Below, piece after piece: positions 13,624 through 18,821 of a stretch of DNA of 64,000 bases (the stretch's first letter is position 1; the number at the start of each line of letters is the position of its first letter). The translations under genes were made by a program, and so were the position numbers. The stretch spans positions 6,661-70,660 of the forward strand of contig JARYMK010000001.1 of assembly GCA_029907165.1 (NCBI GenBank), in the 5' to 3' direction. The stretch comes from Anaerolineae bacterium (GTDB lineage: Bacteria > Chloroflexota > Anaerolineae > DTLA01). The notes under the pieces are model-generated. The model did no database searches. It was given only the letters and a program-made list of their open reading frames with translations, and was not told the origin of the DNA.

Positions 13624-16335
13624 ATGACCATTACGCTGACCGTAGACGGCAAGAAGGTAACGGTAGAAGACGGGGCCACGATTTTGGATGCCGCAAAGAA
13701 AGCAGGCGTGTACATCCCCACCCTGTGCGCCGATGAGGACCTGCTGCCCTTTGGCGCGTGCCGCCTCTGCCTGGTGGAAGTGCAAGGCGACCGCCGCCCC
13801 ATGCTGCCCGCATGCACGACGCCTGCCACCGACGGCATGGTGGTGCGCACGTCCAGCCCGATCATTGACAAGACGCGGCGAAACGTCGTGGAACTCTTGC
13901 TGTCCGACCACCCGGAGGACTGCCTGACCTGCCCTCAGAACAACCGTTGCGAACTCCAGCGCGTGGCGGCCTATGTGGGCGTCCGCACCAACCGCTTCCG
14001 CGGTGAGAAGCATGCCTATCCGATTGACGATTCCAACCCGTTCTACCGCCGCGATTTGGATCGCTGCGTCCTGTGCGGCAAGTGCGTGCGAACCTGCGAT
14101 GAGGTTCAGCAACTGGGCGCCATCAACTTCGCCTACCGCGGCTTCCGCACCAAAATCGCGACGGTGTTGGATCGGCCGGTGGCGACCTCCACCTGCGAGT
14201 CGTGCGGGCAGTGCGTAGACAAGTGTCCGGTGGGGGCGCTGTACCCGGAGGCGTGGCTGCGGTACGGCTTGCCTACCCGCGAAACCAAGACCATTTGTTC
14301 GTATTGCGGAGTCGGCTGCGGGTTGATTCTCCAAACCCGCGGCAACACGGTGGTGGGCGTGCGCGGCGACCCCGACAACCCCGTGAACCGAGGCCGCACG
14401 TGCGTCAAGGGGCGGTTTGGGTATGAGTTTATCAATCACCCCGACCGTTTGAAGAAGCCGCTTATCAAGAGAGACGGGGCCTTTGTGGAAGCCACCTGGG
14501 ATGAGGCGCTGGACCTGGTCGCGCAACGGCTGGCGGCGGTCGTGCGCGAAAGCGGCCCCGACGCGGTGGCACTGCTGACATCCGCAAGGTGCACAAGCGA
14601 GGAAAACTACCTACTTCAGAAATTCGCAAGGGGGGTGCTGGGGACGCACAATGTAGACCATTGTGCGCGTCTCTGACACAGCAGCACCGTGACCGGTCTG
14701 GTCACCGCATTCGGCTCCGGAGCCATGACGAACTCCATTGAGGACATGAAGGAGGCCAAGGCGTTCCTGGTCATCGGCTCCAATACGACGGAGCAGCATC
14801 CTATCATCGGGCTGAACATCCGCAAGGCGGTGCGCGAGGGTGCGAAACTGATCGTCGCCGACCCGCGCTGCATAGACCTGGCCGCCCGCGCGGATATCTA
14901 CATGTCCATCAAGCCAGGAACCAACATCGCCCTGCTGAATGGCCTGGCGCATATCATCCTCAAGGAAGGGTTGGAGGACAAAGAGTTCATCGCCGCCCGA
15001 ACCGAAGGGTTTGACGAGTGGCGGGCGGTGGTGGAGCAGTACACGCCCGAACGGGTCAGCGAGATCACCGGCGTCCCAGTGGATCGCTTGTACGAGGCGG
15101 CGCGCCTTTACGCAAGCACCAAGCCCGCCACCTTGGTGTATGCGATGGGCATCACGCAACACACGTCAGGACACCAGGGCGTGCAAGCGTGCGCTAACCT
15201 GCAACTCCTGACGGGCAATATGGGCATTCGCGGAGGCGGCCTCAACCCGCTGCGCGGCCAAAACAATGTCCAGGGCGCGTGCGACATGGGCTGCCTGCCC
15301 GATTTCTTCCCCGGCTACCAGCGCGTAACCGACGAGAAGGCCCGCGAGAAGTTCGCCCAGGCGTGGGGCGCTCGCTTCGGCGACAAGCCGGGCCTCACCA
15401 TCGTGGAGATGCTCAACGCTGCGGAGCAAGGGCGGCTGAAGGCACTCTACGTTACCGGCGAGAACCCGGTCATGAGCGACCCCGATAGCCGGCACGCGAT
15501 CCACTGCCTGGAGAGCCTGGATTTCCTCGTGGTGCAGGACATCTTCCTCTCTGAGACCGCCCGCCTGGCCGACGTGGTGCTGCCCGCCGCGTCCTTCGCC
15601 GAGAAGGCAGGCACGTTCACCAACACCGAGCGGCGCGTCCAGTTGATTCGCCCTGCCATTGACCCGCCCGGTGAGGCCCGCCCCGATTGGGAGATCGTGG
15701 CCGACCTGGCCCGCCGCACGCTGAAGGCCCTCGGCCAGACACCCGAAGGCCCCTATGCTGGCTGGGACTACGCATCACCCGCCCAGATCATGGACGAAGT
15801 CGCGGCGCTGACCCCCATCTACGGGGGCATCCGCCACAGCCGGCTGGAGAACGGCGGAATCCAGTGGCCGTGCCCGTCCCCCGACCACCTGGGCACGCCC
15901 ATCCTGCACGTCGGCAAGTTCTCGCGCGGCCTCGGCAAGTTCAATCCGGTGGAGTACATCCCATCCGCCGAGACGCCAAATGAAGCCTATCCGCTCATCC
16001 TAACGACTGGCCGCAGGCTGGAGCATTATCACACGGGCACCATGACGCGCCGCGTGGACGGGCTGAACAAACTGGCCCCGGAGGAGCGCGTGGAGATCAA
16101 CACAGACGATGCGGCCCGTCTGGGCATTGCCGACGGCGACTGGGTCATCGTGGAGTCCAGGCGTGGCCGGGTGAAAGTGCGGGCGGCCGTGGGGCGACGG
16201 TGCAGGCCGGGCGTGGTCTTCATGACGTTCCACTTCGCCGAGGCGCTGGGCAACGTGTTGACCCACGCTGCGCTGGACCCCGTGTCCAGGATTCCGGAAT
16301 TCAAGGTTGCCGCCGTTCGCGTGCAGAAGGCATAG
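13624..16335 (+). CDS. fdhA: Formate dehydrogenase catalytic (alpha) subunit, selenocysteine-containing. An in-frame TGA at 14674-14676 is read as Sec.
   Basis: The N-terminal 2Fe-2S/4Fe-4S region and the molybdopterin domain are present. The ORF caller splits the gene at TGA, but both halves are in the same frame. The flanking sequence [42 protein letters not shown] aligns with E. coli FdhF VDCCARV-U-HGPSVAGLHQSVGNGAMSNAINE. The downstream half matches FdhF/FdsA throughout (GVNPLRGQNNVQGACDMG, etc.). Confidence 0.85.
14677..14706 (+). other. Bacterial SECIS-like hairpin immediately 3' of the Sec-UGA.
   Basis: The stem GTGACC/GGTCAC (14689-14694 / 14700-14705) has an apical GGUCU(G) loop, the same loop sequence as the E. 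coli fdhF SECIS. It begins ~13 nt after UGA. Confidence 0.6.
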
Positions 16336-16360
16336 AGGGCACGTCCTGCTGTTGAGCGCA

Positions 16361-16396
16361 ACGGAGCGCCGCGACGCGTGCGGCGCTCCGTTTTTC
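16361..16396 (+). terminator. Rho-independent terminator after fdhA.
   Basis: GGAGCGCCGC-gacgcgt-GCGGCGCTCC is followed by GTTTTT. Confidence 0.75.
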
Positions 16397-16424
16397 GCGC
16401 GCCTTCCCCACCCCGCATCCTCGT

Positions 16425-16452
16425 TTGACACCGCGGGTTTTTCCAGTAAGAT
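16425..16452 (+). promoter_or_regulatory. Candidate promoter (TTGACA-16-TAAGAT) of the ~200-nt transcript or leader preceding proC.
   Basis: An exact -35 hexamer with a moderate -10 lies between two intrinsic terminators. Confidence 0.35.
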
Positions 16453-16622
16453 ACGCCGCAAAGGTGGCAAGCACATGTTGGGCAATGGTTGGATTCCATG
16501 CGGCCGAGGGCAGCGCATCCCTATCCCTGCCAAGCCCCTGGGCACCGTCCAGGGGCGTCGGCACGTGGGGAGGTAGGGCGGCGATTGTCTTCGCCCGCGG
16601 CAATAGCGCATCGTTCGTCGTG

Positions 16623-16650
16623 CACGTGCCTCCCGTACGGGAGGCGTTTT
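16623..16650 (+). terminator. Intrinsic terminator/attenuator hairpin 30 nt upstream of proC.
   Basis: CCTCCCG-ta-CGGGAGG (16629-16644) is followed by CGTTTT. The 28-nt feature also includes the flanking CACGTG. Confidence 0.55.
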
Positions 16651-16679
16651 GTTAGGTTGACAGAGTGGAGACAGTTGAA

Positions 16680-17570
16680 ATGGAAAACACGCTACAGCAA
16701 GCGCGGCTGGCCTTCATCGGAAGCGGCACCATGTCCGAGGCCATGATCCAGGGCATCCTGCGGTGCGGCGTTACGGCGGCGGGGAACATCTGGGCAAGCG
16801 GCCCGCGCAAGGAACGCGCCGCCGAGTTGACCGCGAAGTACGGCATCCATGCCACGACCGACAACCGCGAGGCCGCCCGCAACGCCGATGTCGTCGTCCT
16901 GTCGGTCAAGCCGCAGCGGCTGCGCATGGTGCTGCACGAACTGCGGGGCACGGTCCGCCCCAATCAACTCGTCATGTCCATCGTGGCGGGCGCGAAGATT
17001 TCCTACATCGCGCAGGTGCTCGGCACGCCGTCTGTCATCCGGGTGATGCCCAATACCCCCGCGCAGATCGGCGAGGGGATTTCGGTCTGGTTCGCCACGC
17101 CCCAGGTTACGCCCGAACAGCGTGAGGTAGGCCGCCGCATTCTGACGGCCCTGGGCGAAGAGATTGAGGTGGATGAGGAGAAGTTCCTGGACATGGCGAC
17201 AGCGGTCAGCGGCACCGGCCCCACCTACGTATTCCTCATCATGGAGGCGCTGGTGGACGCGGCGGTGCACCTGGGATTCTCGCGGCGCATTGCCGAGGCT
17301 CTGGTTACCAAGACGGTGCTGGGTTCGGTGCTGTTTGCCCGCCAGTCCAACATGCACCTGGCGCAACTGCGAAACATGGTTACCTCGCCAGGTGGCACCA
17401 GCGCCGAGGCCATCTACCAACTGGACAAGGGAAGCATCCGCACGGTGCTGTCCAAAGCGGTCTGGGCGGCCTACCAGAAGTCCAAACTGCTGGGCGAGTC
17501 GTTGTCGCAGGAGGCCGAGTCCGAAAGCCGCCCGAACGGCAGCCCCCCGTCAGAGAAGTTGGAGGCATAG
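16680..17570 (+). CDS. proC: Pyrroline-5-carboxylate reductase.
   Basis: MENTLQQARLAFIGSGTMSEAMIQG is the Rossmann GxGxxG motif. The ProC C-terminal dimerization region (TSPGGTSAEAI) is present. An alternative GTG start lies at 16665. Confidence 0.85.
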   Translation: MENTLQQARLAFIGSGTMSEAMIQGILRCGVTAAGNIWASGPRKERAAELTAKYGIHATTDNREAARNADVVVLSVKPQRLRMVLHELRGTVRPNQLVMSIVAGAKISYIAQVLGTPSVIRVMPNTPAQIGEGISVWFATPQVTPEQREVGRRILTALGEEIEVDEEKFLDMATAVSGTGPTYVFLIMEALVDAAVHLGFSRRIAEALVTKTVLGSVLFARQSNMHLAQLRNMVTSPGGTSAEAIYQLDKGSIRTVLSKAVWAAYQKSKLLGESLSQEAESESRPNGSPPSEKLEA

Positions 17571-17577
17571 GCGCAGC

Positions 17578-18009
17578 ATGGCACGTCAGGATGCAGGCGC
17601 GGTCGTGCGGTACAAGGTCATCCCCGGTGGTCGCAGGCCCGTGAAGACAGGCGCGGCCTATGACCTGTTTGCGCGTTTGGGTGCGCCCCTCACGCTCCAC
17701 GGCCCCACGCTCGTGCCCCTGGGCATCGCGCTGGAACTGCCCCAAGGCTACGGGGCCATCGTCAAGGCCCGGTCCAGCTCCCCGCTGCGCCACGGGTACG
17801 AAGCGCACGTCGGCTTGATTGACCCCGAGTTCAACGGGCGCGAGGTGTGCACCATCCTGGAGCCGCTCCCCGGTGCGGGGCCGGTTACCATCCAGCCCGG
17901 CGACCGCGTGGCCCAGATGTGGGTCCAGCGCATGGACGTGGAACTGGTGGAGACGGACGAGGACATCCCGTTGGGCCCCAAGGAGGGGTTCGGCAGCACC
18001 GGAACGTAG
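17578..18009 (+). CDS. dut: dUTP diphosphatase.
   Basis: YKVIPGGRRP…GYGAIVKARSS…GLIDPEFNGRE…RVAQM are dUTPase motifs. The protein is ~143 aa. Confidence 0.8.
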   Translation: MARQDAGAVVRYKVIPGGRRPVKTGAAYDLFARLGAPLTLHGPTLVPLGIALELPQGYGAIVKARSSSPLRHGYEAHVGLIDPEFNGREVCTILEPLPGAGPVTIQPGDRVAQMWVQRMDVELVETDEDIPLGPKEGFGSTGT

Positions 18010-18011
18010 GA

Positions 18012-18821
18012 ATGGCGACTGCGATTCGCTGGACGGGAGTTGGCTTCGCCCATGTGGGCGTGATGGTGGGGCTGGCGGCGCTGGCCGACCATAGCCCCGA
18101 CCTCGCCTACAGCCTCGCCCTCGCCCTGCCCGTCCCGCTCCTGTACGCCCTGTTCCGACGCCGCACACCGCCGACCGCGCCCGCGCCGTGGTGGGCGGGC
18201 CTGGCGGTGTGGGCCTTCGTCGTGCTGTCGCGGGCAGGGGCGGCGGCGCTGGTCGCTGCGGGCAAAGCCCCGTTCGCCATCGGGCCGCATCTCGCCATCG
18301 CGGGCACCGGAAGCCTGTTTGCCCTTGTGGCGCTGGCCATTCTGCTGGGCGAACGGTCGGGCGGCGCTGCGTTTGGGTTCACGACGCAGGGCGCGTTGCG
18401 GCAGGTCCTCCTGGGCGTGGGGCTGGCGCTGGCGTTGCAGGCGATCATGCGCGCACCCGCCTGGGCGACAGGCCAGTTGCGCGTGGGCGCGGGCGGCTTC
18501 GCGGCGCTGGCGCAGAGTTTCCCTACCGAATTGATGACCATCGCCCTGGGCGAGGAGAGTCTGTTCCGCGGGTACATGCAAGTCTCGTTGCAGCGCCGCT
18601 ATCCGTGGTGGTTTGCGACGTTTCTCATCTCCATGCTCTTCGGCCTGTGGCATCTCCCCGCCGCGCTCTTCGCACCTAGCCTGCTAACTCTGTTCGGCGT
18701 GGTGGGCTTCCCGTTCGCCTTCGGGCTGCTGGCCGGGGTCATGTTCCGCCTCACGGGGTCCATCTTAGGGCCAGTGGTGGCCCACGCGCTCTACAACGCC
18801 GTGAATGCCATGTTCGCTTAG
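18012..18821 (+). CDS. CPBP-family (CAAX protease-like) intramembrane metalloprotease.
   Basis: The ATG lies 3 nt after the dut stop. The protein is polytopic and hydrophobic, with EESLFRGY, FGLWH and HALYNA (EExxxR / FxxxH / HxxxN motifs). Confidence 0.75.
   Translation: MATAIRWTGVGFAHVGVMVGLAALADHSPDLAYSLALALPVPLLYALFRRRTPPTAPAPWWAGLAVWAFVVLSRAGAAALVAAGKAPFAIGPHLAIAGTGSLFALVALAILLGERSGGAAFGFTTQGALRQVLLGVGLALALQAIMRAPAWATGQLRVGAGGFAALAQSFPTELMTIALGEESLFRGYMQVSLQRRYPWWFATFLISMLFGLWHLPAALFAPSLLTLFGVVGFPFAFGLLAGVMFRLTGSILGPVVAHALYNAVNAMFA

Follow-up and report, generated by a model that had tools for sequence, protein, structure and literature searches.

In a 64,000-nt stretch of contig JARYMK010000001.1 from an Anaerolineae bacterium (hereafter the window; all coordinates are positions in these 64 kb), the proline-biosynthesis gene proC is preceded by a candidate regulatory leader, which lies between it and the upstream gene fdhA and combines a promoter, a short open reading frame (ORF), a set of alternative RNA pairings and an intrinsic terminator. 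The leader was examined computationally throughout, with at most five full-length leaders available for comparison. The locus consists of the following features.

13624-16335, plus strand: fdhA (formate dehydrogenase alpha), with its stop codon at 16333-16335

16361-16395, plus strand: terminator-like 12-bp hairpin and T-run of the fdh operon, ACGGAGCGCCGC-GACGCGT-GCGGCGCTCCGT-TTTT, read directly

16425-16452, plus strand: promoter, with −35 box TTGACA (16425-16430), a 16-nt spacer and −10 box TAAGAT (16447-16452)

16461-16467, plus strand: Shine-Dalgarno (SD)-like AAGGTGG, 7 nt before the leader ATG, read directly

16475-16576, plus strand: leader ORF of 33 codons plus TAG, with ATG at 16475 and TAG at 16574-16576, encoding the peptide MLGNGWIPCGRGQRIPIPAKPLGTVQGRRHVGR

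16496-16498, 16520-16522, 16526-16528 and 16535-16537: the leader proline codons P8 (CCA), P16 (CCT), P18 (CCT) and P21 (CCC), respectively

16519-16531, plus strand: segment 1, CCCUAUCCCUGCC, containing the P-I-P codons and paired to segment 2 in the minimum free energy (MFE) and consensus folds

16534-16556, plus strand: central 10-bp hairpin, GCCCCUGGGC-ACC-GUCCAGGGGC, within the ORF and enclosed by the 1:2 pairing

16567-16578, plus strand: segment 2, GGGGAGGUAGGG, which holds the stop UAG (16574-16576) and pairs with segment 1 or segment 3

16568-16575 with 16627-16634: antiterminator pairing of GGGAGGUA with UGCCUCCC

16579-16626, plus strand: variable spacer between segments 2 and 3, with a local hairpin whose sequence differs in each homologue

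16628-16653, plus strand: intrinsic terminator, made of segment 3 GCCUCCCG (16628-16635), loop UA, segment 4 CGGGAGGC (16638-16645) and U-tract GUUUUGUU (16646-16653)

16667-16670, plus strand: SD sequence of proC, GGAG, 9 nt before its ATG, read directly

16680-17570, plus strand: proC, encoding pyrroline-5-carboxylate reductase, the putatively regulated gene, with ATG at 16680, 29 nt past the U-tract

The identity of proC is supported by a TIGR00112 equivalog match of 248 bits (cut-off 196.75) and by the Pfam domains P5CR_dimer and F420_oxidored in its product. The 296-residue ProC aligns with its relatives over the full length from the ATG at 16680, and these relatives place the organism in the Anaerolineae (Chloroflexota). 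Upstream of proC, the initial annotation had marked a terminator behind fdhA, a TTGACA-16-TAAGAT promoter and a strong intrinsic terminator close before proC, and all three were borne out. The hairpin and T-run behind fdhA (which drew a weak, hairpin-only Rfam match on the minus strand) form the upstream boundary of the locus and lie outside the switch. The promoter is the sole sigma-70-like site between 15500 and 17800 (0.2 expected from shuffles), and from its position transcription is predicted to start at about 16459. At the DNA level the terminator reads GCCTCCCG-TA-CGGGAGGC at 16628-16645 followed by GTTTTGTT; it was scored as terminator-like, with a hairpin energy of −15.2 kcal mol−1, and a search for the motif GCCTCCC-N(2-9)-GGGAGGC across the 64 kb found this one copy, against none in 100 shuffles. 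Translational control through sequestration of the proC SD was considered and rejected, the SD being free in every predicted fold and the stretch 16600-16710 folding at z = −0.08.

For comparison, contigs with ProC 77-92% identical were recovered singly, and their leaders fall into four classes: full, variant, short and absent. Full leaders are present in the window and in loci L081, L082, L093 (L094 being nearly identical to it) and L095, with nhmmer E values from 1e-35 to 1e-46 (1e-27 to 1e-46 over both nhmmer comparisons). Wherever a leader is present, it immediately precedes proC on the same strand, with different genes further upstream (fdhA; a cytochrome gene plus tRNA-His; a divergent phosphoesterase gene; an unrelated gene) and no alignable DNA among relatives before the −35 box; the unit is not the orphan for which it had been taken. 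Invariant or nearly so are the promoter hexamers, the C-rich segment, the base of the central hairpin, GGGAGGT and the 7-bp GCCTCCC/GGGAGGC stem, with loops and linkers varying freely. CTTGACA and TAnnAT are retained in all 10 related loci with any leader, with a variable spacer. Conservation of the hairpins in related genomes had been proposed as a check on the unit, and the 7-bp GCCUCCC/GGGAGGC terminator stem proved invariant in 12 of 12 related leaders, its loops again free; hairpin plus U-tract also occur together in L081, L082 and L095. Another check was for a promoter belonging to proC alone past 16650. A second perfect TTGACA hexamer does lie between the terminator and the proC start, at 16659-16664. 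It was rejected as a separate proC promoter, since no −10 partner stands 16-18 nt from it, and it is not kept in relatives (TTACAG in L081, CTACAG in L082); it is probably fortuitous.

The leader ORF, which the initial annotation overlooked in finding no convincing protein encoded, starts at 16475, about 16 nt past the predicted transcription start, and is conserved. All five full-length leaders carry an ATG-initiated ORF, of 33 codons in the window, L081, L082 and L093 and of 38 in L095. In four of these five homologues the first ATG past the predicted start is in frame, open and preceded by an SD-like 4-mer, an arrangement that arises by chance at a rate of 4-14% per sequence (dinucleotide shuffles of the variable 5′ part). 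Moreover, the leader frame alone runs without a stop codon from the start region through segment 2 in each of the five homologues. Its stop is found 0 nt (window, L081 and L082) or 8 nt (L093 and L095) past GGGAGGT: in the latter two, a 1-nt insertion upstream of GGGAGG throws the ancestral GGUAG stop out of frame, and a replacement in-frame stop (TGA or TAG) stands three codons downstream. As the stop is always 0-8 nt past GGGAGGT, a terminating ribosome would cover segment 2.

In the leader peptide, P16, P18, P21, L22, Q26 and G27 are invariant among the five homologues and the N-terminal half is unconserved. The invariant P-x-P-x-x-P cluster amounts to three to four prolines per six codons. 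The P16 codon alternates synonymously between CCT and CCC among homologues; CCT and CCA, each of which makes up about 6% of the proline codons in the genes of the window, supply three of the four leader proline codons. Long ORFs that overlap the leader on both strands were rejected as genes, having no Pfam match and open frames that are not conserved.

Folding of the 206-nt stretch is more stable than that of shuffled versions (z = −3.0), of which 1 in 200 equalled it, and the MFE fold and RNAalifold agree on the 1:2 pairing, the central hairpin and the 3:4 terminator. Helix 1, formed by segments 1 and 2, is 89% paired across the five sequences, with duplex energies from −11.5 to −17 kcal mol−1. 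For the consensus structure as a whole, 83% of cells are paired, a value not attained in any of 500 shuffles, versus 37-53% when the partners are slid by one to three columns. The central hairpin has an invariant base of 7 bp, a stem top that varies with its pairing preserved and a free loop; by analogy with the trp 1:2 pause hairpin, it may pause RNA polymerase for the ribosome to catch up, or play a synchronising role. Within the spacer (16579-16626), 10 of the 12 consensus pairs of helices 3-4 show changes on both sides in a region that is poorly aligned, and the spacer hairpin may be an alignment artefact.

In all five homologues, the strongest upstream pairing of the terminator 5′ arm is with segment 2 or a stretch overlapping it (best or co-best partner in five of five), which supports the antiterminator role that had been suggested for GGGGAGG (16567-16573) opposite the CCUCCC arm. 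Energies of the 2:3 duplex range from −15 to −21 kcal mol−1 versus −15 to −18 kcal mol−1 for the terminator hairpin (five homologues), and 0.2% of shuffled segment-3 sequences pair equally well with segment 2 (window). When folding was constrained by a 28-nt ribosome footprint on the PxP codons, the 2:3 antiterminator was obtained in the window, L082, L093 and L095; for the window, this held for the full-length transcript as well. A footprint moved to the stop codon gave the terminator, as did folding without any ribosome. The computations show a conserved set of parts, a conserved ORF and pairings that exclude one another.

The course of events that we infer from these parts, including the start site, translation of the ORF, ribosome stalling, transcription-translation coupling, pausing at the hairpin and the amino-acid specificity, would run as follows. 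Transcription would begin at about 16459 at the conserved promoter, and a ribosome would load at AAGGTGG and translate the 33-codon ORF (16475-16576), whose Pro16-Ile-Pro18-Ala-Lys-Pro21 cluster sits in segment 1, the segment that would otherwise pair with segment 2 around the central hairpin. With proline plentiful, the ribosome would reach the stop and cover segment 2, leaving segment 3 free to form the 3:4 hairpin. If no ribosome were present, segment 1 would hold segment 2 and the 3:4 terminator would likewise form (superattenuation). In both cases the GCCUCCCG/CGGGAGGC hairpin and its U-tract would end transcription at about 16650 and release a leader RNA of about 190 nt. When prolyl-tRNA is scarce, the ribosome would stall on Pro16, Pro18 or Pro21 and mask segment 1 together with the 5′ arm of the central hairpin; the freed segment 2 would capture segment 3 as it emerges, no terminator would form, and RNA polymerase would read into proC. 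The signal sensed would be the supply of charged tRNA-Pro or, more generally, the speed at which proline codons are decoded.

The leader therefore quite likely switches proC between termination and antitermination; its constant position before proC and the alternative pairings support the earlier suggestion of an attenuation leader controlling this gene. That it is a trp-type ribosome-mediated transcription attenuator, sensing proline supply through translation of proline codons, is on balance probable because the proline codons lie in segment 1, the stop lies in segment 2, the pairings exclude one another and a terminator stands 29 nt before proC. Proline is assigned as the amino acid because proC encodes the last step of proline synthesis and the proline codons are clustered and invariant. 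The classical leader-peptide attenuators are trpL, hisL, leuL, thrL and pheL of E. coli. Like them, the proC leader has a short, promoter-proximal ORF with an SD and a start codon near the transcription start (the SD excepted in L095); codons for the amino acid of the downstream gene, clustered in the first pairing segment; a stop at segment 2, placed for a terminating ribosome to cover it; mutually exclusive 1:2, 2:3 and 3:4 pairings (the stalled MFE fold of L081 excepted); an intrinsic terminator immediately before the structural gene, here the first biosynthetic gene (the U-tract excepted in L093 and L094); and, as a prediction, superattenuation when untranslated. Classical attenuation of this kind has been modelled (PMC1183508).

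Several points weigh against such an attenuator. L095 is without an SD-like motif, with another ATG ahead of the in-frame one, and L081 yields no 2:3 pairing in its MFE fold with a stalled ribosome. The C-rich strand of the stem gives proline codons in one frame of three, and glycine and arginine are as frequent in the leader peptide as proline, which is not its most frequent residue; since the C-rich stem confounds the proline codons, the proline specificity is argued from their position, their invariance and the proC context, and not from enrichment. The structure tested was derived from the same five sequences, which represent three lineages and give covariation little power. In L093 and L094 the hairpin is followed by CUCAGUGC, with no U-tract, and so cannot be a canonical intrinsic terminator. 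Identity of the whole leader to that of the window is 45-69%, no higher than the 55-74% at third codon positions of proC. Close relatives carry truncated leaders (L084/L086 and L083/L098) or none (L096/L100). Farther off, 79 of 80 distant proC loci have no terminator-like hairpin within 120 nt of proC. Finally, coupling of transcription and translation in Anaerolineae is assumed, and the downstream unit probably also holds dut, which has no link to proline. As to the first of these conservation figures, the core that spans segments 1 and 2 is somewhat better conserved than the leader as a whole, at 61-82% identity to that of the window; conservation of the leader is real and modest. The hairpins of L093 (2950-2985) and L094 (268-300) are longer than that of the window, GAGCCUCCC/GGGAGGCUC, and run into AGUGCAAUC.

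Among the rival explanations, an attenuator working through RNA alone, whose core would bind a small ligand, a tRNA or a protein, with this binding in place of translation selecting the 1:2 or the 2:3 pairing, and whose ORF would be a by-product of high GC content, is unlikely. Conservation is indeed concentrated at the nucleotide level in the stems, and the fold is significantly stable and consistent across homologues. Open frames are common at 66% GC (another frame, of 76 codons, is also open in the window), the SD missing from L095 fits a by-product, and the variants L084 and L086 retain a 1:2-like hairpin and a terminator without the ATG. Yet the simple helices of the leader lack the conserved unpaired nucleotides and junctions typical of aptamers, and loops and bulges vary freely. 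Such a mechanism would also leave unexplained the SD and start codon, the uniquely open frame and the stop re-created after a frameshifting indel. Searches of Rfam with the window and eight related loci, permissive E values included, gave no matching family and no T-box: in Rfam 15, the best matches to 15800-17300 at E ≤ 10 had E values of 1.6-7, far below gathering, and were generic hairpins only, and the T-box model RF00230 gave no match on 15800-17300 (E ≤ 10), on the whole window (gathering threshold) or on the eight related loci (E ≤ 1). A T-box or known riboswitch was accordingly rejected, Rfam yielding nothing of relevance and no Stem I, specifier loop or T-box sequence being present, so that the riboswitch put forward in the initial annotation has no positive support.

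The variant leaders just mentioned comprise L084/L085, L086 and L099 (the last partial), at 2766-3000 in L084, 2774-3000 in L086 and 1-78 in L099. Deletions have removed their central hairpin and the greater part of segments 1 and 2, and the start codon is lost, the ATG being replaced (GGTTATGGCG to GGCCACGCG); the reading frame is recognisable still (AKGF...), and L086 retains a proline-rich stretch, EPAPPTPYAVP, with a stop directly behind GUGGAGGC. These variants may be decaying or re-wired attenuators. In the short leaders, L083 (2474-2555) and L098 (about 155-245), the GCCTCCC/GGGAGGC hairpin with its U-tract stands about 25 nt downstream of the conserved promoter, and neither an ORF nor an obvious antiterminator is present; the terminator stem of L098 is lengthened to 13 bp by an A-tract upstream. 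L096 (1043-1196) and L100 (1-182), whose ProC is 81-85% identical, are leaderless: a T-rich region lies upstream of proC, with a TGTG(G/A)TAGATT −10-like element a short way before the gene, and the leader is therefore patchy among close relatives. Beyond these, the leader element was absent by nhmmer from the 80 best proC loci of the genome collection (ProC 54-65% identical).

These reduced forms bear on a second rival, a constitutive 5′ structure (a leaky terminator or a 5′-end stabiliser) that would fix proC at a low level, the rest of the leader being debris in the course of loss. The short forms, which have just the promoter and the hairpin, the leaderless loci and the whole leader evolving about as fast as synonymous sites all fit this explanation, and the truncated and minimal leaders are either decaying derivatives or a hairpin with such a function of its own, as leaky terminator or stabiliser. 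Debris would not be expected to keep segment 1, the base of the central hairpin and segment 2 invariant or nearly so in three lineages despite diverged neighbouring sequence, to keep segment 2 consistently the best partner of the terminator 5′ arm, or to keep the stop codon beside segment 2. A constitutive structure is rather improbable.

An independent gene, be it a trans-acting small RNA (sRNA) of about 190 nt or a basic micro-protein of 33 residues with proC reached by incidental read-through, appears very unlikely. The promoter-to-terminator architecture would suit it, the peptide is partly conserved (RGQR.PIP..PLG..QGRR in the window group), and trans-acting attenuator RNAs and leader peptides are known in Sinorhizobium (PMC6614838 and PMC7298713). 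Against this, the unit never occurs away from proC and keeps its position and orientation as the upstream context changes, which likewise disfavours the sRNA alternative of the initial annotation; the 29 nt past the terminator leave no room for, and show no sign of, a proC promoter; and the conserved residues coincide with RNA stems. The leader peptides matched no family in NCBIfam or Pfam, and an alignment of the in-frame extended peptides matched no called protein in a collection of 5.8 billion protein sequences. No second copy of the leader was found by nhmmer in the window or in 100 loci; a metagenome scan with GGGCAGCGCA-N(35-60)-TGGGGAGGTAG returned six matches, all due to chance, and a scan of viral contigs with the pattern of hairpin plus segment 2 returned none. 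The terminated leader RNA could nonetheless act in trans as well.

It is also highly doubtful that the core (segment 1, the 10-bp hairpin and GGGGAGGUAGGG) is an aptamer for proline, pyrroline-5-carboxylate (P5C) or uncharged tRNA-Pro, or that PxPxxPL...QG is a proline-sensing arrest peptide, either of which, if true, would make the leader a new class of proline sensor and not a simple codon-reading attenuator.

The ribosome-mediated attenuator thus being preferred, it can be set beside known systems. The usual account of proline biosynthesis names feedback inhibition of ProB as its control, with T-boxes in Bacilli, and for Chloroflexota almost no regulatory genetics exists to our knowledge. 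Seliverstov and Lyubetsky reportedly predicted attenuation for proteobacterial pro genes. Our literature search found no described leader-peptide attenuator of proline biosynthesis, and none in Chloroflexi. The proC leader differs from the classical attenuators in its amino acid and gene (proline, proC), in its host (Anaerolineae, Chloroflexota), in a long ORF of 33 codons that contains a 10-bp hairpin and in proline codons that are interspersed (PxPxxP) and not in a run; no sequence or Rfam relationship links it to them.

The use of proline codons as a sensor has a precedent in Salmonella, where the short ORF mgtP in the mgtCBR leader sets alternative stem-loops through its proline codons and responds to limitation of Pro-tRNA with higher expression of the genes behind it, as experimentally established (PMC3641672). 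mgtP has 17 codons, three of them consecutive proline codons, with an SD 9 nt upstream; it acts in cis as one of two tandem sensors, and controls Mg2+ transport and virulence genes (PMC3641672). The proC leader resembles mgtP, and mgtL of the mgtA leader, in having an SD-preceded short ORF with proline codons, its role here being read from sequence. It shares with them the principle alone: there is no peptide homology and no Mg2+ transporter, and the gene downstream is proC, whose product makes proline, so that, unlike with mgtP, the loop would be a direct end-product feedback. A parallel in output is the P5C reductase gene proI of B. subtilis. T-boxes induce proBA and proI at limiting proline, which they sense through the charging of tRNA-Pro, according to the summary of Brill et al. 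2011 in PMC9245794. As at proI, a P5C reductase gene here lies behind a terminator/antiterminator leader with read-through predicted at limiting proline; T-boxes, in contrast, bind uncharged tRNA directly and need no translation.

Several observations concern the neighbouring genes. A dUTPase gene (dut, about 17599-18009) follows close behind proC, and then a CAAX/Rce1-like protease gene (17847-18821 as listed); the three probably form one transcription unit, in which case attenuation would extend to genes that have nothing to do with proline. The relatives have other gene orders past proC, with YfhO inserted in L083 and an fdh/NuoE-like operon following proC in L084, L086, L093 and L095. L084 (2503-2578) and L093 (2583-2658) each have a minus-strand tRNA-His(GTG) gene shortly before the proC promoter, the tRNA-His loci being the lineages in which proC does not adjoin fdhA. 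The candidate that this leader-adjacent tRNA was a tRNA-Pro was rejected, the gene being tRNA-His. In fdhA itself, the frame is interrupted by an in-frame TGA at 14674-14676, in the motif NVDHCARL-TGA-HSSTV, which is the usual selenocysteine position of FdhA/FdhF. Sub-threshold Rfam SECIS_3 matches (31-34 bits; E 5e-4 to 4e-3) were found at the equivalent place in L081, L082 and L083; the 67 nt after the TGA in the window show no notable fold (z = 0.24).

As a switch, the proC leader most likely belongs to a known kind, for which both the gene and the phylum are unusual, and its practical impact is modest, as the clade is narrow and uncultured and the principle already known. If the attenuator reading is true, proline would join the amino acids governed by classical attenuation, and classical attenuation, hence tight coupling of transcription and translation, would be documented in Chloroflexota. 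The full, truncated, minimal and absent leaders, found at 77-92% ProC identity, offer a small natural series for the gain and loss of attenuators.

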